A stretch of 55,653 nucleotides of DNA, counting the filler, from Catajapyx aquilonaris (lineage: Eukaryota), in the NCBI GenBank assembly GCA_000934665.2. It is 2 parts of 2 records of this genome, joined end to end, with 100 filler letters (N's around TTAATTAATTAA, not from the genome) between each part and the next. Parts side by side here need not be neighbours in the genome. Positions count along the whole stretch, not along the records: positions 27,965 to 55,653 come from JYFJ02005010.1; 1 more part is not named here. One strand, 5' to 3'. Below are positions 29,651 through 52,885 of the stretch, one piece after another. The notes under the pieces were generated by a model. It did not search any database, was not told the DNA's origin, and was given only the letters and a program-made list of their open reading frames with translations. Numbering within the stretch: the first letter of the stretch is position 1; each line of letters begins with the position of its first letter. The position numbers and the translations under genes were made by a program.

Positions 29651-30400
29651 AGAAAAGGCCGATCCGTTATTCCTTCCCGCAGCGGCGCTAGTAAAACAAT
29701 GGAATCTCGCTGTGCGTGTCGTTCATTCGCCATAACAACTAGCGACCCTCCTCCCGATTACTAGGTTTATCAGCGACCCCCCTCCCGATTACTACCGATC
29801 ACGGTCTTAGCTACCGATAGCGTATACCAAGATGGCCGCAATATGGAGATGTTCACGATCCAGGTCACATCATGGCCACCTCCAGTCAGCGCCACGGCGC
29901 GGCGGGAATGAGTAACGGAACGCAAAATGGCGGCGAGTTTCCCGACCTCTCCTTCTAAGACCGTGGTACGGACAGAGTGGACCACCTCTTCGGACTAGGT
30001 CACCAACGCCAATGGAAAGGAGGTACGGATAGGCGTCTTCGAGAGTGGAAACATTGACCTTGTAAAAGCGCGACATATAAAAAAGGAACTGTGAGAACCC
30101 TGATGTGAACCTGTAATAATTATGTTTCTTACCATTATGTTAGTAATGATAATAATCTGTTTATATAAAGATACCAGGGCTTTAGGAACATTAGCCTGTG
30201 CAATGTACAGATGGGAGTTTCATTTCAAGTGGCGCATTTTAATTGATTAGCATATTGGAAGACCCGGTATCTAATCTCTCGACGATGCGATGGAGCGAAT
30301 CAAGATGCATTATCGTAATTGGGGCTGGGTCTCTACAGTGATAAATCGAAACTAGGTGCGGAGAAAGAAGGCCTTTTGTCTGCTGACACTCGCGTTCAGG

Positions 30401-31941
30401 ATGACATTTTGGAAGCGTGTGGTCAGCTGCCTCCTCAAAAGGGACGTGGGTTCGACCCCAGACGAACCCGACGATGGCGCAGGAGGAAATACCCGGGTGC
30501 TGTGGACGACACTCCGGGTGAGCAAAGTGTTCGGGTGTTTCCCAGCCAAGAACTTGTTTCTGAACCGGAAAAGGCCTCTCAGGATGCCGTGGATGTCGTG
30601 GGAGGTCGTGTGGAGCTTATCTCTACTGGTGTTCATCACTTATTTCATCTACCAGTCCCAGGAGGCGTACATCACAGTCGGTACAGGCCTGTTCGGAAAC
30701 TACTCGACGAATGCTTTCTTGGGGATTATGGCAGCTGCAGTCAGCACCGCGCACATCTGGATCAATTTTTTCAACATGATGATCTACTGCGCCCAGTTGT
30801 GCGCCCTCGTCCATGACCTGACCCTACTCGACCGCAGGCTTCGACACATTGGGGTCAGACTACCCAACGGGGTCAGGGAGGAAATGACCCGTCCGATGTG
30901 GGCGTACTCCGGTTTGCTGGCAATGCACTTTGTCAGCAACTCGGTCTTTCTGACTCTGAATTCCGGTTTATGGCAAGACAAGTCCACGGTCGTGTACCTC
31001 CTTCTCGTTTCATTCCTGGAAGGATTGTTTCATGGCTTACCAGCGTTCACCATATATTCGATGGCTCAGGTCTTGGACACCAGATTTGCGATGGTCAAAA
31101 AACACCTGCAGGACCAGTCACAGGTCAGTGCATCAGAGACTGACCTAGTCGGAAAGGAAGAGCTGGAGTCCTGCTTTGCTGTGTACATGGACCTGCGCAA
31201 GATGGTCAGGTCTCTCAGCAGGATATTCGGCGCGTACTTGGTGGTCATGTACGGGCTGTTCGTCTTCATGATTGTGGTCTTCACTTTCTGGACCATCCAG
31301 CTGTTCGGAAGCGAAAACATGAGTGGACACCTGGACTTCGCTTTCACCATGCTGTGTTCCACCGTACTCATAATCATACATATGCTCGTTTTCACCATTG
31401 GTCTGAGCGACATACCGCATCAGGTGAGGGGATGCAATCAGTTTGAATAATTATTATGGCATGCTCAGGTTCTACTTATTTTCAGGCTGAGGAATTGCGT
31501 GATTCCCTAGTCAAGATGAAACTGTTGCAGAACCAGGATCCAATCAAGACTAGGGTGAGTACTGCAGCAGAAATTTATGAACCAGTCATTACTCGTTGAA
31601 ATTATTTCAGGCGGAAGTATTGCTGGACTCGATGTACACTTCGCCTGTGGAAATCACAGCTGCTGACTTCTTCTCCATCAACAGACGACTTGTGACTAAC
31701 GTACGTCATCGGTGCACGAGCCAGGCCAAGGTTTCAACGGCATCTTTTTCATCGGAATCAAACTTGTCTCTTATTTCAGATCACTGGCGCAGTCACTACC
31801 TACCTGGTGGTCGTAATGCAGTTCCGTGTTGGTGAATCAGGACGAGACAGCGCTGGACATAGCCAGTACAACGACACGGATCACACCTCACACGTGCCTG
31901 TGACGTTGGCCTACGCAACTGCAAATCAGAACATGCTATAA
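30401..31941 (+). CDS. Gustatory receptor (7tm_7 family)
   Basis: Exons 30401-31423, 31486-31554, 31611-31700 and 31780-31941, with three phase-0 C-terminal introns. Multiple TM segments, ITAADFFSINR and the TM7 motif TTYLVVVMQF. Confidence 0.93.
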
Positions 31942-35370: not shown

Positions 35371-35680
35371 AAATACGGTACCCAACGGCCTACACATGAC
35401 CTACACACAGTACGGCCCAGGAGATACGCGCATTGCTGTCATCCGTCACCTTTTGTCAATTTTCAAAAATACACTGAAGGCGATCCTGATGAGACGATGG
35501 CGCCTCAGGGTGACACTCCATTAAGGGAAGTGGCATCTACTTCTTGCGGTGCTTCCTTCCTCCACCAGGCGGCATGGCAGGACGATCAGAGGCACACCCC
35601 AACGGTTTGAAGGCCAGAGCCACATCTGATCCAGAGGGATGAGGGGGAAATGGGGAGAAAGGGGAATATGGTGATTGCAA

Positions 35681-37060
35681 CTTATAATTGCTTGTTCATG
35701 GGATCATGAAGATCATTGGACTTTTTACCTGTTCATGATGTGATCATGAACAGTCAGCTTAAATATTCTTTGTGATCATGAAATTCAGCCACCTTATAAT
35801 TACTTGTTCATGGGATCATGAAGATCATTGGACTTTTTTACCTGTTCATGTGATCATGAACAGTCAGCTTAAATATTCTGTGATCATGAAATTCAGCCAC
35901 CTTATAATTACTTGTTCATGTGATCATGAAGATCATTGGACTTTTTTTTCCTGTTGATGTGATCATGAACAGTCAGCTTAAATATTCTTTGTGATCATGA
36001 AATTCAGCCACCTTATAATTACTTGTTCATGGGATCATGAAGATCATTGGACTTTTTTACCTGTTCATGTGATCATGAACAGTCAGCTTAAATATTCTTT
36101 GTGATCATGAAATTCAGCCACCTTATAATTACTTGTTCATGGGATCATGAAGATCATTGGACTTTTTTACCTGTTCATGTGATCATGAACAGTCAGCTTA
36201 AATATTCTTTGTGATCATGAAATTCAGCCACCTTATAATTACTTGTTCATGGGATCATGAAGCTCATTGGACTTTTTTACCTGTTCATGTGATCATGAAC
36301 AGTCACCTTAAATATTCTTTGTGATCATGAAATTCAGCCACCTTATAATTACTTGTTCATGGGATCATGAAGATCATTGGACTTTTTTACCTGTTCATGT
36401 GATCATGAACAGTCAGCTTAAATATTCTTTGTGATCATGAAATTCAGCCACCTTATAATTACTTGTTCATGGGATCATGAAGATCATTGGACTTTTTTAC
36501 CTGTTCATGTGATCATGAACAGTCAGCTTAAATATTCTTTGTGATCATGAAATTCAGCCACCTTATAATTACTTGTTCATGGGATCATGAGGATCATTGG
36601 ACTTTTTTACCTGTTGATGTGATCATGAACAGTCAGCTTAAATATTCTTTGTGATCATGAAATTCAGCCACCTTATAATTACTTGTTCATGGGATCATGA
36701 AGATCATTGGACTTTTTCACCTGTTAATGTGATCATGAAATTCAGCCACCTTATAATTACTTGTTCATGTGATCATGAAGATCATTGGACTTTTTACCTG
36801 TTCATGATGTGATCATGAACAGTCAGCTTAAATATTCTTTGTGATCATGAAATTCAGCCACCTTATAATTACTTGTTCATGGGATCATGAAGATCATTGG
36901 ACTTTTTTACCTGTTCATGTGATCATGAACAGTCAGCTTAAATATTCTTTGTGATCATGAAATTCAGCCACCTTATAATTACTTGTTCATGGGATCATGA
37001 GGATCATTATTTTAATTAATGATTATTAACCTATTCATGTGATCATGAATATATCAGCCA
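35681..37060. repeat. 110-bp tandem satellite, ~12 copies
   Basis: CCTTATAATT recurs at 36011, 36121, 36231 and onward; each unit carries three GATCATGAA cores spaced 38, 32 and 40 bp. Confidence 0.97.
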
Positions 37061-40000
37061 ACTGAAATAATATTACTGCATTTTCGATCATTTTACTGGT
37101 TCATAATTGGCCCATCATTGCAGGGACCCAATCAGAGGAATTATTCATCTAATATTGACCATAAGTCAGTAACAACCTGAATGACACGTTTACTTCATGC
37201 TATTTGACCATGAGCGTCATACCGTAATTACCCTGTAGTTCATCTTAATTAGGATCCAACCGAAATTAAATTCAACTTAATATTATTTTATTCTGTGTAA
37301 CTGTGACCGTCGACTTCAACATTAATTCATCCGATCACGGGATCTATCCTGATTGCATGATCACTTAAATCAATTTCTTTTCACCTGATGCGACTATGTG
37401 ACAGTCAAGGTCAGGAAAGTCGCCCCCTTCTCCCCAGCCATCAACCCCCCCCCCCCCCTTCCGACGCCCTCGTATACAGGCGTATGCTGTCAGTTTTTAG
37501 TAAACCAAGTTTATACTCAAGCAAACAAGATTTTAGATACAACAATATCAGGTTGCATGGAATGGCGCAATTACAAGTCAGGGGTGATAGTATGCAGGAA
37601 TCACGTGGAAATAATTTTGTGGTTATGGGTAATCGCGCAGGATTCATTAGCCGGGGCCCTATGGGAAAAAAATGAAATACACAGTCTGCATTACACACCG
37701 TTTCTCAACTTATAAATAAAATGAATGTATACGACACCCATCTAACCTCCCATCTAACACCTCAAAGAAAGGCCAGCTGATAGCCAAAAATCGATGATAA
37801 AAAATGCATCCATTTCAGTGGAATGCACCGCGTAATGGAAAAACCTACTGCTAACTATGCAAATTTGCGATTCGACTACCAACAAGGATCATTGGATTTG
37901 TCAGCAAATAGGGGCACATTACTTCAGTATGACGCCAGTAGCCTTCAAATTACATTACCGACATTATGAAAGGTCACTGTTACCATTTTTAATTCAGTCC
38001 ACATTTTATTCCACAATGCTTGCATGGGATGCCAAAATGACGTATGTTAAATGCGGCAATAACTGGTTTTGGTTGAAATGCGCATTATCGTACACTGAAG
38101 GTCACAGTGAAATGTTTTTTTTAAGTGGACGCAGCTGTTTTAAAATTCAAAATTCATCATGGAGGCAACATAATATCTGAACATGAACTCTAAAGTATCT
38201 TAACAGCAATTGATTGCCAGTGGAAAAGCGGCAGATCATTCTCATAAAATAATAAACAACCAGAACAGGAAAATCGTTACAAAATTTCACTTTCAAATGA
38301 GCCTGTCGTATGCCCCATAAATACGTAGGCCTACAGCCTCTTCAGTGTTACTGTAAATACGAGTAATTCCAAACTATTTTCCTTTTAAGAGTTTTCTCAA
38401 ACTTTAATTATGTGAAAAAGTTGCACACTTGAAAAAAAAATAAAACTGCTAAATTTGAAGTTGCCCCATCCCTCTCCGCATTGCCTGCAACCAAGTCTTT
38501 TTTATTTGACCCTCAGGAATATTCTTCACTTAAACTCACAGCTCGTCAAATCACATTTTAGTAAATAAAAACCAGCTGCGCAAATATTGCCATGGCATGA
38601 TCCTCAAATTATTGCACAATGTACAGAAATTAATGATCAAGGGTCAAATGGGACAACTCTATATCCGCCGACTGATACGTATGCCTATACTGAATATCGT
38701 GTAGATTCCATTTGACTTGGCCATCTAAACCGCTAGCTGTAATTATGCTTCTAATTGTAATTGTACCACTTGGTTAATTTTAAAAATTTGGACTACAGAA
38801 TAAAAAATCGTCATTAAAACTTGATGCAGATGAAAATGGTCCAACAATGTTTTGCCATAAGGCCTCAGCCTCCACCTTTGTCTCTAATTAATCGTCGCAC
38901 TTAATCCTGTCTTTTAATTACGCCTGGGGAAAAGCGTACCTTATTATGATGAGGTGTGCCGCACTTGACGCCGATGCGATGGAGGCCTCTCACACACGAA
39001 GTTCACTCAACGATTCGTCGCGATAATCTGAGACGTACTATACACAGATCAAAAAAAAAAAAAAAACTATTCTTTGTGCAGGTCGAGTCAGGGGGGGAAA
39101 AAGATAAGGTGCGACATTGTCAATTTCATTCATGGCTCAGTATTTGGCTTCCTATAATATGTCTTCAAATTAGTTACAGATAACAGGTCTCTCAATATCT
39201 CTCTTTACAAAGTGATGGGTAAATGGCTAAACCGCTGCACTGACAGACACTGTAGAGAGTCGCGTTCAGTTTCATCATAATAACACTACAAAGTGATTGC
39301 AACGTGTTCCGATAGAAACATGTTACTCATTTCTCCGCACTAAGCTAAACTTTCTCAAAAGGTTACTATTACATGTTATGTTAAAAATGGCAACTGTTAA
39401 CATAACGTTGCTTATGCCTGATTGCACCAACGAAATTACCGATTTGATACACTCCTAACAGATCGCTAGCACCAGGCTTCAAACATTTCGAGCCTGCCTA
39501 TAACCACTGTGTTAGAGAATAATAAGGAGGCATGAAACTGGAACATTTCATTTCAAAATATTTGTAGTTTCTTAACTTTTTTTTTTTTTTGAAAACCTTT
39601 CCCTCCGTTAAATTTTTAAAATTATTTGAAGAAACAAAGCCAACTCTCTTCCAGGTATATAGGAAGAACTACTCTTGACTCTTGAGTTAATACCATGGTG
39701 TTATGATCATGACGCGCCGTCAATTTGCGTGCCAAACGAGAACAACCACTCCTAAGTTATACATACACCCGATTCATCAAGCTTCAAGGTTACCTCATAA
39801 CTCAAGCACGAAGCACCATCTGAATAATTCTCCAGAGCATCGATTGAGGACAAATCAATGCATATACCGGACCTGTATTCCTCTGATGTCTCATTAATTT
39901 GATGGCTTGCAGTACTGTCTCCAGCTAATAATAGACACGAGTTGTCGCACGTGCGAATGAGCATGGACATTAATCTTTTAGTACACACAGCGGGCTCTAT

Positions 40001-40249
40001 ATAATAATTGGTGGACAATATATGGGTACAGTTTGCTAAGCGGTTAGCTAGTGTGAATGCTCTGAAGCATCAAAAATGCCACTGGATCAGGGTGGAGCTG
40101 TTACCAAATCGAAGAAGGTTTGACTGACTTGAGGCGCCCAAATAAGTCTCTCTTGGGCGTGAACCGCACGCAAGGAAATCACGCCAACCACATCGACCAG
40201 CCCAGTCTGTACGAAAGACTCGGCGGATTCAGTCCAGAACAAAACAGCA

Positions 40250-41995
40250 ATGCTGCAAGTGAGGAGAACAAAAGTGACCAGGTTCCTCTCAACGGTTATC
40301 CCTGATGCGTCCAAGGATGTCCAAGAAGTCTCATCAGAGAACATGTGGACTGTCCAACAAGCCTTCCGTCCTCTGGCTGTCCTGGCCAAATTGGTGGGTT
40401 GCTTCCCAACGACCAGGATCTGGAACGGACCCTACGGAACTCGAGAATGGATCACTCCTGTCATCTTCTTATCTGCTACCATCGCAGTGATAGTCTTCAA
40501 TTTGTGGGATTACACTGAAGATGATGGCTACGACGACGCCCCTGCAGAAGGGGGCACTAGAAAAGTCGTGGCCTTTATTTTCGACCTGTTTATGTTCACG
40601 GTTCTGATGCAGTACATCCTTCTGCTGGTCAACTTCAAAAAGATATGCTTGATTTTCAACAAACTGGTGGAGTTTGATGGGAAGTTGGAGAACAAGGTGA
40701 ACAAGTCCTTGTTCTTTGAAGCGTTGGGAATGCTGCTTTGTGCTTTAGTGCTGCAAGTGGCTTATAGCATCCCGGTTTGGATAGCAGCTGTTGGAAGAGC
40801 AGAATCCGCACTATGGAACTCTTACTTGGTCTTGCGGATATACACTGGCTTCTTCGATAGAATCGGCACGTTCATGGCCATTTTCCTGTCCGAATGTGCG
40901 AGGAAGCGCTTCTCTGTGGTAAGCTCCTCTATTGAATCCGCCATTCAGCTTCTGCCTGTCACTTACCCATTCTCCGAGACTGAAAGAAAAACAATGTCCA
41001 TCAAAGATTGCACCCCAAAACATCTGGCAAATGGCAAGCACAAGGCCCTGCTAGACCTGCACGGCTTGTTTCAATACCTGTGCATGACAGTGGATGCAAT
41101 TAGTGATGCCTTCGGATGGATCCTGCTCCTCGAGTACCTCCGATGCATTGTCGCCATCGTGGGTTCAGGAGCCTTCCTCATTTTTAGTGAGTGGATAGAT
41201 GAATACGAAGAGCCAAAGTTTTGCTTCATCTTGGAGGTCATCTCAGCGTCTGTGATGCTTGTGGTCATGACAGTGATTCCAGCCGGAATTGAAGTACAGG
41301 TGAGGTAGATAGTGGGGCTCACCAGTCCCATTTGTACAAAACTGGGATTCAATGAAAATATATTAATGAATCTCGCCACAAATATTAATCCATTTTTTAA
41401 ATTTTATGACAGGCAACTTCGTCACTGCCTAGATTAGACTGCATCAGTTTGCACGACCTTGACTCTGAATGCAAGCAACAGGTAAACACAAATGTATCAT
41501 TACAACATGTGCAAACTAATACAGTGGATTTCAAATTGGTACAACCAGATAGAGAGGCTGACCAACAGAATGACACGACCTCCTCGAATATCAGCTGCAG
41601 GTTTCTTCTCCATCGAAAGAGGCCTCCTTCCTGCGGTGAGTTTCCACACACATGGATAATATGGTGTACTATCTGAGATGCAAACTTCAGACCATTTGGA
41701 TATACGATAAGTCTTTCATATTCAGCTGCTACAATGTGCCAAGTAAATTAATGCTGTTAAGCATAGCCTGAAGACCCAACTTGATTAATATAATCAGATG
41801 AGAATGAATGGGTGTCCTGACCTTGATCAACTAGACAGAAGCTAACCCATTCATGTATCTTCCTTACAGGTGGCAGCATCAATAGTGACATACCTTGTCA
41901 TCATCGCACAGTTCAAAGGGTCAGAAAAGGCACCTAAACATGATAATGCCACAGGCAATCGTAGGTCCAATTTAAATGATTCTTGGACTGAATGA
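40250..41995 (+). CDS. Gustatory receptor (7tm_7 family)
   Basis: Exons 40250-41299, 41413-41481, 41549-41635 and 41870-41995, all joined by phase-0 introns. ISAAGFFSIER and the TM7 motif VTYLVIIAQF. Start codon uncertain. Confidence 0.93.
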
Positions 41996-45935: not shown

Positions 45936-46920
45936 CTAATGAAGGCCTGTATCTTCCTCATGTGGAGTTGTTTCCATGGGAGGTCGAAGAACTGATTTCA
46001 CTGCAGAAATACGGGGGAAGTACTTTGTGATTCGCATGATTTGCGTGATTTCTATTAAGAAACACACGCATGTTACCACCCATGAAGCAACGATGAGAAC
46101 AAAAGGACCGTACAGCTTCCTTACAGTGAGGGGCCTACTCTCCTCCTCATCCTCGCTCCCCATCCCTTCCTCAGCCTCTTCTTCTTCATCATCACTCTTG
46201 GACCACTGGCGACGCTGGACCTCCTTCAGGGACTTAAGAAACACACGGTAGAGTTCGACTTGCTGCAGATATGACATCAATCCAGATTCAAATTCCCAAA
46301 GCGCCGGTCTAGTTACGTATGGCAATAAGGGAATGTCCTTGAGAGTTGAAGAGCTGGTGTAAAAGCTGAGAGTAGGTTCGGTGTTGTCTCTCACACGAAG
46401 GTTTCCATTGCTGTCCACCACTTCATATTATTATTTTAGCCAGGTTCATGACGTAACTAAGTCCGATGCAACTGTGTGATGGTCCTCTTCAGCTGTTTTT
46501 CAATGCATTCTGTGTAGCTGCTCATCATCTTCAATTTTTGAGCAATCTCGTGGTAGTAGGTGTGGCCTTCCACTTTGCTGGCCAACATGTTGTATAGACC
46601 ACAACCATTTCCAAATGGGCTCCGACTTCGAAATCCGAGTTGCTGAGTTCCTCCAGTGTGGTTGGCAGAATCTCCTTCTCAGGGACTGCCACAAAAGCGA
46701 AAACCATTTCTTGGTAACCACACGACAGGATCATGGCCACGAAAAACCAAAACAATACAAAGATTCTCGCTGCATGAGCCCTTGGAAACTCTTCGTTGGG
46801 CAAATGCTCAATCAAGGCACGGCCACCACAAGAGTGAATTAGTTACCCCGTTTCAGGGCAGGGCCCTCTTGGGGGGACACAACTCTCAGATACAGATCAT
46901 CACCCAATATGGCAGTACCC
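45936..46920 (-). pseudogene. Divergent ionotropic receptor pseudogene (pore, TM2, S2, TM3)
   Basis: ALIEH..ARIFVLFWFFVAMILSCGYQEMVFAFVAVP..PTTLEEL, EFESGLM and RPLTVRKLYGPF..FLIEI; several frameshifts at 46420-46610; 5' part missing at the LINE junction. Confidence 0.8.
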
Positions 46921-46924
46921 TTAA

Positions 46925-47547
46925 AAATAAATCCTTTTCCCCACATTATCAAAAAAAAATTAAATAGACGGTATGCCACCTCTTTTGGCAGGTTCCCAAA
47001 CAAAAGGTGGGTCTTATCGGCTGAAAACACCCTCAGATCTGACACAAAATTCTTCCTGGGCGTAATGAAGAAAGGTCAATTGTACAAGTCATGATGCAAT
47101 GAGAAAGTCTCGTGAGAGTTACACCAAGTACAGGGAAGTGTATCATCGAAAACAATTTTCCGGCCGCGTATATATTGAGGGGGATTGGTTTCTGAGGCTG
47201 GCCATCAGCCTTGTGATAGGCAGTGGTAAACAAAAGGCCAAATACCAAGGCGGAGATGATTCCGGGACTATAGATCCCGATAATGAACATATCGGGTTGA
47301 ACGAGTTAGTGCCAGGTGACTAGCACTTAAAAATACGTTCCTCATAAACTTGAATGCCCGCACCCAATGAGAGTTCCAGTAATTCCAAGTCATCACAGCC
47401 CACTTCCGATAACTCTCGGTATATACCCTACTGTACCAGTTCAGGCTTGGGGATGTAGCCGCCGCCTGGTTTTTGGAACTAAGGTATGCCAGTTTCTGGA
47501 GCCGGGAGGTAGGAAGGTTGGTCAGCTTTATCAGTTGTTTGCCTATC
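46925..47547 (-). mobile_element. Non-LTR retrotransposon (LINE) ORF2 3' fragment, part 2
   Basis: Continues part 1 across the TSD: IGKQLIKLTNLPTSRLQKLAY...NWYSRV..., ending GNLPKEVAYRLFNFFLIMW; degenerate. Confidence 0.65.
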
Positions 47548-47884
47548 TGTAACAGGGTGTGAAAGATGTGAGGATATTTTTTTGTGTGTGTGATGTAATC
47601 CTGCATTCTATTCGAGGGACAATTTGACTGACAAAGGTAATATATATATGGGAGAGGGGCTCCAGAGGAGGACTCCCAGGGTGGTGGTTGAGGGGAGCGG
47701 TTGCGATCGCCCTTTTCGGATACGGGGTAGTGTGTTGTACGCCCCATCCTCACAGTGTAATAAGTTTGAAGGAAGCTGTACTCAAAAGAGGAATAAGATA
47801 CATATGAGAAGACACCCTGGAGTTTATTCAGCAGATCCAAATCCATTACGTTTGACCTTGCGATTTGACGGACACGAGGTTACA
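47548..47884 (+). repeat. 5' LTR (337 bp)
   Basis: TGTAACAGGG...GAGGTTACA; near-identical to 52095-52434. Confidence 0.97.
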
Positions 47885-47886
47885 AG

Positions 47887-47897
47887 TGGTAGCAGTG
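47887..47897 (+). promoter_or_regulatory. Primer-binding site, initiator tRNA-Met-like
   Basis: TGGTAGCAG begins 2 nt after the 5' LTR and is complementary to the CUGCUACCA 3' end of eukaryotic tRNAi-Met. Confidence 0.8.
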
Positions 47898-47993
47898 CCA
47901 CGGTGACGGTTCGAGGCGTTGTGCTTACGGACGGTGTCGGTACGGTGACCTGGGGGTGTCCGGGTGCATTGGATTTGTGTGCGTGGTGGTGCG

Positions 47994-50900
47994 ATGGCCG
48001 ATGCGTTCGCCGCACAGTTAGCCCAGGCGATGCAGGCGCTGTTGAACTCGCAGCAGCAGTTGGTGCAGACCATAGCGGGTCAGACTCAGGCACGTCATTT
48101 CGCGACACCGAGGGTGGCCTCGTTTGACGGTACGCAGGCTGTTGGCGTGCGTGCGTGGATCTTCCAGTTGGAGGCGGGCTTTGCGGCGTCCGGAATACCG
48201 GACGATTCGCGGTTGGTACATGTGCCGGTCCTGCTGTCCGACGGGGCATTGCAGTGGTATGTACACCGTACCACGGCGGGCGGTACGTTTCGGGACTTTG
48301 CCGAGTTCAAGACGGCCATAACCGAGGCGTTTGAGCCTGCGCATTTTCAGGCCAATTTGAGGCGTGAATTGGCGGGTCTGCAACAGGATTCCGCTGGCGT
48401 ACAATGCTATGTGCGGGAGTTCCTGAAGCTCATTAACCAATGCGATGAGATGTGCGAGTTGGATAAAGTTCATTTTTTTTTGGAGGGACTACGCCGTCGC
48501 ACGCGCGCGGAGATGATCTTCCGCGCCCCTACTACATTGGCGGAGGCGATTGGGATGGCCACACAATTAGAAGAGGCCCACCAGCAGCGGCAGCAGGGTC
48601 CGTTGGCTAGGCGCCCGGACCTAGGGGATGATCATCCCTCTGGAAGGAGTGCCGCCACGTTCGGCGGAGGGGGTTTCCGGCGTGGATTTCACGGCGGTTG
48701 GAGGCGCCCTTTTCGAGCTCAGCGAGGTAGAGGTGACATGGTGGCTCCTGCGTCGGCGGGTCAACGTGGCCACGCCGTTGCTCCGAGTTATGGGGAGCCG
48801 ATGGATGTCTCACATGTCACCAGGACGAGCCGGGACGCCATGGTGTGTTTCACGTGCCGTGGAACGGGGCATGGAGCCCGTGAATGTCCAAGTAAGAAGT
48901 CGCCACGACGTGCCAGAGGTGCTGACAACTCGTCGGTGGCCAAGATCAGGAACTGCGACGGGGGAGACAGCGAGTCCGGACTACAGTCGGGATTCCTCGT
49001 CGTCGTGGGTGACGTTGGTGGTGTATCAGTGAAGTGTTTATACGACAGCGGCTCTTCGGACTGCTTCATCAGTGCGGATTGTGCCACACGTCTGCAGCTG
49101 GGACAGGAGCATGGTGCAGGTGGTCAGAAGATGCCCGTGGCGATGGCGGATGGAACAATCCGTTATAGCACACAAGCTGTAAAAGTTGATGATGTCGATT
49201 TTGGGGGTTGGAAGTGTTCCTTTACAGCTCATGTTTTACACTTGGAGAAGCATGATATCATTTTGGGGTTGCCGTGGATTCGTAGGTTCAATCCTAGTAT
49301 TGACTGGGATGCAAATAGTATGGAGGTGAAGACTGGGAATAGGTGGGTGAAATTGCCCGTCGTTACCAGCGAAGTTCCGGTGACATCTATGATGCTAAAT
49401 CACATGGCATTTGAGAAGGAAATTGAAACTGCGACAGAGGGGGAATTGTTTGTGATTATTCAGAAAAATGTCGTGGGAGAAAATCAAAGTGGCAATGATA
49501 AATGTATGGAAGGTATTTTGAGGGAATATGGGGATGTTTTCCCTGAGGATTTGCCCGATGGATTACCACCCCAGAGGAATGTTGAGCATAGGATAGAGTT
49601 GGTACAGGATGCGACACCAAGTTGGTGTCCCGCATATAAAATGACAAGAGATGAGTTGGTGGAACTGAAGAAGCAACTGACAGAATTGTTAAAAAAAGGT
49701 TTCATTATACCCAGCGGATCGAATTTTGGATCTCCGGTTTTGTTTGTCAAAAAGCATAACGGGGAGTTGAGGCTTTGTGCAGATTATAGGAAGGTGAATG
49801 CGTTGACAAAAAAAGAGAAGTATACTCTTCCTAATATCGAAGAATCATTAGATCAGTTGGATGGGGCAAAGTGGTTCAGCCGTATTGATTTGAAATCCGG
49901 ATACCATCAGGTACGTGTCAGGCCAGAAGATACGCATATCCCCGCGATTAACACCAGATATGGCACATTTGAATATCTGGTCATGCCTTTTGGACTTTGC
50001 AATGCAACTTTCACTTTCACTAAGCTGATGAACCAAGTGTTCTTGCCGGTCTTGGATGATTGCGTGTTGGTGTATTTGGACGACTTATTGGTGTACAGCA
50101 AAAACAAGGAAGAACCACGTGAGACATCTGCAACAGGTTTTTCAGATTATGCGTAAGCACAAGTTATACGGCAGGTTTGATAAATGTGAGTTCTTCCGAG
50201 ATGAGTTGGAGTTTCTGGGCTTCAAGGTTTCGGGTGAAGGTATTGCGGTAGTAGGAAAGAAAATAGAGGTCATCAGGGACTGGCCAGTGCCGACAAATGT
50301 GCGTGAGGTGAGGTCTTTCTTGGGGATGGCGAATTTTTACAGGAAGTATGTCAAAGGGTTCGCCGGTATCACAGGACCTATTTCGCATTTGCTCAGAGAT
50401 GATGTAACATTCATATGGGGTTTAGAGCAGCAAGATGCTTTTGACAAGGTCAAGCATTTTCTCACGTCCGCTCCCATACTCAAGGTCTTCGACCCCAATG
50501 GGGCAGCGATAGTGAGAGTGGATGCGTCGGGGAAATCCATAGGCGCGGTGTTAGCTCAGGTGGATGTGGGAGGCTTGGAATGTGTCGTCGCTTATGAGTC
50601 GAGGAAGCTGACGAGGACCGAGGAGGGTTGGTCAGTTTATGAATTGGAATTGCTAAGTGTAGTACATGCTTTACGCATTTGGAGGAGGTATCTCATGGGG
50701 CGTCATTTCATACTTGAAACGGACAACAAGGCCGTGAGCATGCTGAAGTCTCAACAACAGGTTTTTGTATACCCAAAGGTGTGTTGAGGGGTAGACTTTT
50801 GAATGAGTATCACACGGCACCATCTAGTGGTCATTTTGGGTACGATAAAACTTATGCGGCATTAGCTTCTCATTATTTTTGGCCGGGTCTTTGGACGGAT

Positions 50901-52078
50901 GTCACCAAATTTGTCAGGTCATGCGACACGTGTAGTCGGGTCAAGTTTCCGACCACAAAACAGTCTGGTTTGCTGCAACCTTTGGACATTCCAAGTAGAA
51001 ATTGGGAGAGTATATCAATGGATTTGGTGACAGGGTTACCGGTTACTGGAAAGGGTTGTGATACTATTGTGGTATTTGTGGATAGGTTATCGAAGATGTG
51101 TCATTTAGCTGTTTGTAAGAGCTCGGTCACTGCGGTGCAGCTGGCTGAAATATTTTTCAACACTGTATATAAGTTGCATGGTATGCCCGTTTCTATTGTG
51201 AGTGATCGGGATGCCAAGTTTACTAGTGCTTTTTGGAGGGCTTTGTTCAAGAGATTGCAGTCTCGACTTTTGATGTCCAGTAGTTTACATCCACAGACGG
51301 ATGGACAAACGGAGAAAGAAATCCAGGTGTTGACAACTACGCTCAAGGCGTTTGCTTTGGAGCTGCCCACTTCATGGGATAAGAATGTGGGTTATGTAGA
51401 GTTTGCCATTAACAATTCTATGCATTTGTCGACGAAGGTGTCGCCATTCTTTGCAAATTATGGATTTAATCCCATTACACCTGGGGTTTTGCTGGGGAAG
51501 TCACAGGTGCATGAGCAGGTGCAAGCGACCGGTACTATGTTGGAAACTGTGAGGATGATAAATGTACGGATCAAAGACTGTATGCGTCAGGCGCAGGAGA
51601 AAAATGTGGTACACTATGATGCTAAACACAGGCCAGTGCAGTTCCAGGTGGGAGATGCAGTCCTGTTGGACATGAAGGCGGTGCGTTATGGGAATGTGCG
51701 GGGGAGTAGAAAGCTTCGCCCACGTTATGAAGGTCCTTTTGTAGTAACTGCTGTCATATCTGATGTGTGCTATAAATTAGATCTACCTGTATCTATGCGA
51801 ATACATGATGTGGTACATGTGTCAAAGTTAAAGTTGTATGTTGAGAGGGTAAGAGAGTGGCAGGATAGCTCAGCACGGCCGCCACCCCTACACGTCGATG
51901 GCCAGAGTCCCACGTATGTGGTACAGAAATTGCTTGCGAAAAAGAGGGTCCATGGCAAAGTGTTTTTTTGGTGAAATGGAAAGGCTACCCTGTCGGTGAA
52001 GCCACATGGGAGCCACATGCCAGTGTGAAACATTTGCATCGTTTGATACATCAATTAGCCTCGAGGACGATGCCTTGA
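47994..52078 (+). pseudogene. Disrupted gag-pol polyprotein
   Basis: Gag with PMDVS and CCHC knuckle CFTCRGTGHGAREC; protease LYDSGS; RT LCADYRKVN and YLDD; RNase H VDASG and ETDNKA; integrase GHFG..CDTC, SMDLV, SDRD and GQTE; chromodomain YVVQKLL..VKWKGY..ATWEP. Frameshifts at ~50117 and 51963-51969, and an apparent deletion at ~50760-50785. Confidence 0.93.
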
Positions 52079-52094
52079 TTTTGGTGTGGGAGTT

Positions 52095-52434
52095 TGTAAC
52101 AGGGTGTGAAAGATGTGAGGATATTTTTTTTGTGTGTGATGTAATCCTGCATTCTATTCGAGGGACAATTTGACTGACAAAGGTAATATATATATGGGAG
52201 AGGGGCTCCAGAGGAGGACTCCCAGGGTGGTGGTTGAGGGGAGCGGTTGCGATCGCCCTTTTCGGATACGGGGTAGTGTGTTTTACGCCCCATCCTCACA
52301 GTGTAATAAGTTTGAAGGAAGCTGTACTCAAAAGAGGAATAAGATACATAATTATGAGAAGACACCCTGGAGTTTATTCAGCAAATCCAAATCCATTACG
52401 TTTGACCTTGCGATTTGACGGACACAAGGTCACA
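52095..52434 (+). repeat. 3' LTR (340 bp)
   Basis: TGTAACAGGG...AAGGTCACA, preceded by a weak purine tract GGTGTGGGAG. Confidence 0.97.
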
Positions 52435-52439
52435 CTATC

Positions 52440-52885
52440 CATCTCAGGGCTCTTCCAGAAAGTGGTCTATAAATGCCTAGTTCCAGCCTTAGAAAATAAT
52501 TTGCCGTGTTGGATGGGAGCTGGAGAAACCTCTTCAAGAAATAATTTTGAACCTGATCAAAGATCTGTAAGTGCGCAATTCCCCAGACCTGGGCTCCGTA
52601 TATGGAATTATGGGAGCAATTTGGGCGTCAAACAGCCTAAGTGCTACCTGAACGTCACGGCCTTTCAGGCGTAGCATTGTATTCCACAGGCTATTGATTG
52701 CCACTTTGGCCTTCTTTTTAAGACATTCCGCCGCCAACGTAAAGTTTCCCGTGAAAAAAACGGTATACCAATCAAGATAGGTATAATTATGTGGAGGTCC
52801 AGTTAAGCGCCATTTTGTGTTATTTATTCTCATCGCCGAACTCCCGCGCGCCCTCTCGGGAAAACGACCAGAACTATTATCAAAT
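52440..52885 (-). mobile_element. Non-LTR retrotransposon (LINE) ORF2 fragment, part 1 (post-RT thumb region)
   Basis: IVLVVF..NG..YTYL..GNFTLAAECLKKKAKVAINSLW..ALRLFDAQIAPII-YGAQVWG..QNYFLKRFLQLPSNTANYFLRLELG; degenerate. Confidence 0.8.

Follow-up and report, generated by a model that had tools for sequence, protein, structure and literature searches.

Chromoviruses are the branch of Gypsy retrotransposons that carries a chromodomain, and they occur mainly in plants, algae, fungi and vertebrates. A synthesis published in 2009 described them as missing from protostomes, and posed loss there or arrival in vertebrates by transfer as explanations (PMC2774666). A 2026 survey reported chromodomains in env-bearing elements of cnidarians, molluscs, annelids, hemichordates, nemerteans and rotifers and, by our own count, in none of the 56 arthropod entries of its env-bearing list (PMC13524379). 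No report of an arthropod chromovirus was found in the literature searched, which did not extend to Repbase, Dfam and subscription papers, and the available parts of eight further papers mention none (PMC2864245, PMC4202319, PMC12440569, PMC7998251, PMC10257491, PMC6338049, PMC3587641, PMC5408684). The element considered here occupies positions 47548–52434 of a window from the genome of Catajapyx aquilonaris (assembly GCA_000934665.2), the window being the whole stretch of 55,653 nucleotides, filler included, that was analysed. A preliminary description had called it a young chromovirus-like Gypsy element with an intact chromodomain.

Our verdict is that a real, apparently previously unnoticed clade of chromoviruses is resident in this arthropod; what is new is the lineage and its host, the architecture and the likely mechanism being already known. 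The window copy has sister copies in a family A, for which a genome search returned four matches to the stretch from integrase (IN) to chromodomain and 11 matches to the long terminal repeat (LTR). Searches of the genome for reverse transcriptase (RT) and for the Chromo domain identified two more families, B (copies C8765, C5947 and C5045) and C (copies C8989, C4672, C1344, C3802, C12979, C2413 and C10239). Over RT and RNase H (RT-RH), families B and C are respectively 62 and 57% identical to family A, and over integrase the identity is 45–49%.

The phylogenetic position of these families was evaluated with LG+G4 trees of 30–36 chosen rows, leaving out near-duplicates and rows of short coverage (the 31-row tree also omits one long-branched Cordylochernes row). 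The host families form a single clade in the RT-RH (100/100), IN (99/99) and RT-IN (100/100) trees, and in all three this clade is nested with the chromodomain elements of plants, algae, fungi and vertebrates, with support of 100/99–100. The other Gypsy elements of the host and the Cordylochernes proteins fall apart from the chromovirus branch, also in larger FastTree runs and in a quick mixture-model tree; all five Cordylochernes proteins of the first RT-RH tree lie outside it, and three more lie just outside. The approximately unbiased (AU) test rejects the union of the host clade with each of five arthropod lineages without a chromodomain (p ≤ 2e-4), and the grouping with an arthropod non-chromovirus clade that the preliminary description named as fatal to its proposal was not observed. 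Taken together, these sequence comparisons, a phylogeny that the same description had suggested, support the assignment of the host clade to the chromovirus branch.

Within that branch, the AU test also rejects sisterhood with fish and frog elements (p 3e-4, with two vertebrate proteins), which speaks against membership of the V-clade/Sushi group, and the best topology of every tree places the host clade away from the opisthokont cluster. Haematococcus proteins join the host clade at 94/96 in the RT-RH tree. Among the matches listed, the best outside single-domain ones reach 51–52% in RT-RH, the named ones being from the green alga Haematococcus, and the best named IN matches, also algal, reach 43–44%; the host families resemble one another more closely than any outside match listed resembles them. 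No relative of at least 55% identity appears among the listed matches from 5.8 billion proteins and 1.8 billion representatives, in searches that worked with word-index, length and best-match limits and with 50% clusters that can hide relatives. In the Atlas, the clusters next to the integrase carry chromodomains and come from Basidiomycota, Streptophyta, Chordata, Rhodophyta and Oomycota. A metagenome scan gave 26 loci, the best at 42%, and a scan of viral contigs gave no match.

The domain order found with Pfam is that of Gypsy elements: capsid, CCHC knuckle, protease, RT, RNase H, integrase, Tf2-1-like SH3 and Chromo (Table 1). The element shows TG...CA LTRs, a target-site duplication (TSD) and the order protease-RT-RH-IN, as Ty3/Gypsy (Metaviridae) elements do, and gag and pol share one reading frame. 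No env gene lies between the end of pol and the 3' LTR, a gap of 16 nt, which argues against an errantivirus-like element. Most of the anatomy given in the preliminary description stands, namely the near-identical LTRs, the 5-bp TSD, the primer-binding site (PBS) resembling the initiator methionine tRNA (tRNAi-Met), the PMDVS motif in gag (48798–48812) and the codons of the aromatic cage (Y 51915, W 51977, Y 51986) around a run of seven T.

Table 1. Features of the element and of the long interspersed nuclear element (LINE) around it; positions count along the window.
Feature	Position	Strand	Basis
Left flank: downstream part of a host LINE fragment	46839..47547	-	
TSD CTATC, 5 bp, left	47543..47547	+	
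5' LTR, 337 nt, TG...CA	47548..47884	+	
PBS, 11/12 nt complementary to 3' end of host tRNAi-Met	47887..47898	+	
gag: Ty3-type capsid (PF19259/PF03732), RG-rich linker, PMDVS, CCHC knuckle	47994..48900	+	Pfam
Aspartic protease, LYDSGS	49008..49277	+	Pfam
RT (YLDD) and RNase H; frameshift near 50109; stops at deletion point 50760	49746..50760	+	
Integrase: H2C2 finger, rve core, Tf2-1-like SH3 (GPY/F module, YEGPF)	50772..51845	+	Pfam
Type I chromodomain coding stretch, frameshifted at T run 51963-51969	51915..52078	+	Pfam, sister copies
G-rich polypurine-tract-like stretch before 3' LTR; similar in sister families	52080..52094	+	
3' LTR, 340 nt	52095..52434	+	
TSD CTATC, 5 bp, right	52435..52439	+	
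Right flank: upstream part of a host LINE fragment, with the end of the RT frame	52435..52812	-	RVT_1

The window copy itself carries three breaks, two of which are absent from the preliminary description: the frameshift in RT and the deletion, in which about 0.32 kb was lost, with the end of RNase H and the linker to integrase. The RT frameshift is present in a difference-free contig in three of three sequencing runs (one sample). The third break, in the T run, splits the chromodomain over two frames, PF00385 scoring 34 bits on the part downstream of it; here the listed sequencing-run contigs and the window disagree at a single gap, and the break could be genuine or could have arisen in assembly. 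Whichever way the T run resolves, the window copy is dead. The chromodomain described as intact is therefore not intact in this copy, and the description holds for natural sister copies, in which PF00385 scores 39.8 and 40.0 bits (cut-off 25.1). One of these family A copies, C6662, has a single open frame of 1468 amino acids that runs from gag through protease, RT, RH and IN to a chromodomain with the Y/W/Y cage and keeps the protease, YLDD, RNase H and DDE motifs, and a second, C2212, is likewise open across the chromodomain. Chromodomains are present in families A, B and C, with natural open frames above the Pfam cut-off.

The ratio of nonsynonymous to synonymous divergence (dN/dS) is 0.07–0.24 in most within-family pairs and 0.33 in one close pair, a range that includes chromodomain stretches, where counts are small; purifying selection acts within the families. 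Synonymous divergence (dS) reaches 0.54 within a family and is saturated between families. Family C LTRs give 24 matches of 68–100% identity; eight of the 20 loci examined, with identities as low as 69%, are flanked by perfect TSDs, the other 12 being element ends, split, or loci whose ends were not located. Solo LTRs of families A and C, with TSDs, range from 100 down to about 70% identity. All four testable loci of family A are flanked by perfect TSDs, and family B has one perfect and one matching at four of five positions. Given the saturated dS and the solo LTRs down to about 70%, the clade has long been resident, and it is old in this genome with young members (LTR Kimura two-parameter distance, K2P, 0.006–0.012). 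The word young thus applies to the window insertion, whose LTRs are 1.2% apart (four substitutions and two indels, K2P 0.012), and not to the lineage with its three families.

Other members of these families were also observed. A family B element of 1.95 kb (C5045, L120:2528-4477) is non-autonomous: it keeps gag and the chromodomain and has lost RT, RH and most of IN, its LTRs being 99.4% identical. A decayed SH3-plus-chromodomain remnant (C7171, L122:4783-5027) perhaps represents a fourth family, and a family C solo LTR (C4295, L169:1501-1790) lies within a short TTAGG-like repeat.

As the preliminary description proposed, the element is inserted in a LINE: the two flanks belong to one LINE, and in all eight other LINE copies examined they are adjacent, uninterrupted, with a 5-bp overlap, the target site being present once. 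The joint 47542-52435 is seen in sequencing-run contigs from three runs of one sample. A check of reads across the junctions had been suggested, and none of the sequencing-run contigs listed bridges a host-LTR junction. A run from a second study holds one 105-nt piece with four differences at depth 3, a hint only, and no RNA run is among the listed sequencing-run holders of the element. The gene content of the window suits an arthropod: besides a MADF gene and the gene of a trypsin-type protease, it includes three receptor genes, two gustatory and one ionotropic. Together, these data support the integration of a chromovirus-branch element in an arthropod genome.

A tRNAi-Met PBS was found at seven of seven 5' LTR junctions examined. 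In a deletion derivative of family A (C15826, L010:229-798), the 20 nt after the 5' LTR are perfectly complementary to the end of host tRNAi-Met and are joined to the RNase H end of pol through an 8-nt microhomology. This derivative looks like a mis-jumped plus-strand strong-stop product and probably arose when the host's own tRNA primed reverse transcription; since its complement to that tRNA extends over 20 nt, it argues for replication in this host. One of two family C PBSs (C1344, L054:3820-3831) has a T at position 6, as would correspond to the initiator tRNA of land plants, but one substitution would account for this T just as well. The twelfth PBS base was considered as a relic of a plant tRNA, an idea that was rejected given that the host tRNA yields the same base and that also has against it a crustacean Copia with the same PBS (PMC3587641).

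The cage is the part of the chromodomain on which predictions of function rest. Its W and second Y are invariant in eight of eight aligned copies and its first Y is kept in seven, and the complete Y/W/Y cage, aligned to Rhino and Oxpecker, occurs in all three families. An acidic residue (E/D) five positions after the start of the second Y-motif of the cage is also kept in all three; in HP1, such a residue has a role in the contact with methyl-lysine. The predicted fold is similar to those of HP1, Rhino, CBX1 and MPP8, with a root-mean-square deviation of 1.3–1.5 Å (mean predicted local distance difference test score, pLDDT, 71). It has been reported that type I chromodomains with a cage bind methylated lysine 9 of histone H3 (H3K9me; PMC6317226), and that the chromodomain of MAGGY targets H3K9me regions (bioRxiv 2021.11.30.470311) and heterochromatin (PMC6673714). 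From cage and fold we infer, as a reasonable expectation, that the host-clade chromodomain would bind H3K9me2/3 and would prefer heterochromatin. Repeats cover more than 10% of the flanks at 11 of 14 insertion sites, whereas 10 of 45 tiles of the window exceed that share (p 6e-5), a pattern that selection against genic insertions would give as well.

The search for chromodomains brought up other genes. Three HP1-like paralogues (L062, L063, L065), 87–97% identical in DNA, indicate a recent HP1 expansion; two loci (L073, L076) have chromodomains followed by frames that resemble genes of what we take to be Polintons or adintoviruses; and an expanded family (L081, L086, L087, L090, L091) combines a chromodomain with a conserved unnamed C-terminal region, apparently split over exons. 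Odorant receptors are nearly absent from the genome, with one weak match among 15 candidates (C453), so the host is probably no typical winged insect. In the window, the two gustatory receptors and the ionotropic receptor are located near the element, at 30356–31450, 40163–41308 and 45936–46842, and at 35678–37092 a 110-bp unit is repeated in tandem about 13 times.

The reading that we favour, and that we hold to be probable if only slightly so, is that of three long-resident chromovirus families, founded when an element was transferred in the distant past from a eukaryote outside the animals, and predicted to tether to methyl-H3K9. An ancient transfer would fit the algal best matches, the tRNA priming, the rejected link with vertebrate elements and the lack of close animal relatives; in its tRNA priming the host clade resembles plant and algal clades and not Tf1, Sushi and Tcn1, which mostly self-prime (PMC6317226). 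A more specific scenario is offered tentatively: the chromovirus of an alga or another non-animal eukaryote would long ago have entered an arthropod ancestor, adopted the initiator tRNA of the host and founded an undescribed, still recently active clade whose HP1/Rhino-like chromodomain lets it land in H3K9-methylated chromatin. By analogy with other LTR elements, the polyprotein would be cleaved by the element's own protease, host tRNAi-Met would prime the minus strand, and the integrase, with its SH3 module and chromodomain, would insert the cDNA; the chromodomain would tether the integration complex to methylated nucleosomes, and insertion would thus be biased into repeats. The transfer suggested in the preliminary description has to be an old one, recent transfer being ruled out by the saturated dS between families and the solo LTRs down to about 70%; it stays the likeliest origin, unproven as it is. 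The GC-rich gag that had been advanced as a sign of transfer was discarded: gag has 60% GC, pol 44–49% and bulk host DNA 42%, and the contrast does not look foreign, with 49–55% GC in the host coding genes of the window (0.60–0.76 at third codon positions) and 47–63% upstream of six other host Gypsy elements.

Several observations weigh against this reading. The AU test leaves three placements unrejected: next to the fungal and vertebrate cluster (p 0.14), next to two elements of land plants (p 0.20), and as the deepest branch of the chromoviruses (p 0.14 and 0.11); the algal grouping is without support in the IN and RT-IN trees, and the searches made found no donor. The clade labels are based on host names and the Pfam content of database proteins, not on GyDB or REXdb types, and the mixture-model tree was a quick search only. 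As to targeting, the flank-repeat comparison of the insertion sites with other loci, 11 of 14 against 8 of 17, is not significant (p 0.15), and the window copy, though inside a LINE, is about 0.7 kb from a receptor gene. Finally, molluscs, annelids and cnidarians do have chromodomain Gypsy elements (PMC13524379), none of which was identified in the trees.

This last point leads to the most serious rival, a live one that we consider less likely: a vertical relic, in which chromoviruses of early animals were lost in most arthropods and survive, unnoticed, in poorly sampled lineages. The deep divergence of the three families is compatible with it, as are the deepest-branch and fungal/vertebrate-sister positions left by the AU test, the chromodomain Gypsy elements of several invertebrate phyla, a Gypsy-Chromo fusion described as ‘widely distributed in animals’ (bioRxiv 2021.11.30.470311) and the frequent masking of repeat proteins from protein sets. 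Against this stand the rejected sisterhood with vertebrate elements, the best topologies, all away from the opisthokont cluster, the lack of a listed protein match of at least 55% and the position of the Cordylochernes proteins (five in the first RT-RH tree, three later) outside the branch.

It is improbable that the families diverged in an unsampled donor (a food organism, symbiont or parasite) and arrived by several separate, fairly recent transfers. They are three discrete low-copy families, each with the young members mentioned above, and many of their nearest database matches are unnamed environmental sequences; yet the solo LTRs of A and C span the whole range from 100 to about 70% with TSDs, dS within a family reaches 0.54, and the metagenome contigs hold no close relative. 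Contamination, or an assembly chimera with algal, fungal or plant DNA, would explain the algal identity of the nearest named proteins, the lack of a listed contig across a junction and the origin of every full sequencing-run holder in one sample, and is very improbable in view of the host LINE split with a TSD and uninterrupted in the eight other copies examined, the gustatory receptor, ionotropic receptor and MADF gene on the same contig, the TSD-flanked LTRs on contigs of up to 141 kb and the PBS that matches the host tRNA. Equally hard to sustain is the independent capture of a host HP1-like chromodomain by an ordinary arthropod Gypsy lineage, suggested by the best solved-structure matches, Drosophila Oxpecker and Rhino (in a list with no retroelement chromodomain to compete): RT-RH and IN both lie within the chromovirus branch, union with each arthropod lineage is rejected, and the order of SH3 and then chromodomain is that of plant, algal and fungal elements.

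A selected, multi-family arthropod clade that is not related to the vertebrate elements means that arthropods are able to retain the branch, and it makes the question of loss versus transfer testable with existing genomes. It also provides a transposon with a natural reader of the H3K9me type, and the host belongs to an animal group that employs such readers for its own silencing. If true, ancient transfer would amount to a cross-kingdom colonisation of a phylum thought to lack chromoviruses.

Among known systems, the host clade resembles Chlamyvir (PMC6317226) in the order gag-protease-RT-RH-IN-SH3-chromodomain, in the 5-bp TSD and in the aromatic cage, which is kept in 59% of Chlamyvir elements; it differs in its animal host, evident from the flanking arthropod genes and LINE, and in forming a long-branched clade of its own. 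The stand-ins for Chlamyvir here, Gypsy proteins of Haematococcus, Closterium and Nannochloris, none classified as Chlamyvir in this analysis, are the best named matches to the host clade in both RT-RH and IN. With the Tf1/Sushi group (Sushi-ichi and Amn-ichi of the vertebrate V-clade, and the fungal MAGGY/Tcn1; PMC2774666, PMC6317226, PMC2864245) it shares a type I chromodomain at the C-terminus of integrase, but those elements mostly self-prime, without a tRNA PBS, whereas the host clade has the tRNAi-Met PBS that sets it apart from Tf1/Sushi and Tcn1, and sisterhood with the fish and frog elements is rejected. The env-carrying elements of Cnidaria, Mollusca, Annelida and other phyla (PMC13524379) are likewise invertebrate Gypsy elements with a chromodomain after integrase; they possess env and are basal to known chromoviruses, while the window element has no env. 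Finally, CopiaMBD of arthropods (PMC6673714) is also an arthropod LTR element whose reader domain is proposed to guide insertion into silent repeats, but it belongs to the Copia superfamily and its methyl-CpG domain is derived from the host, whereas the chromodomain of the clade described here is inherited.

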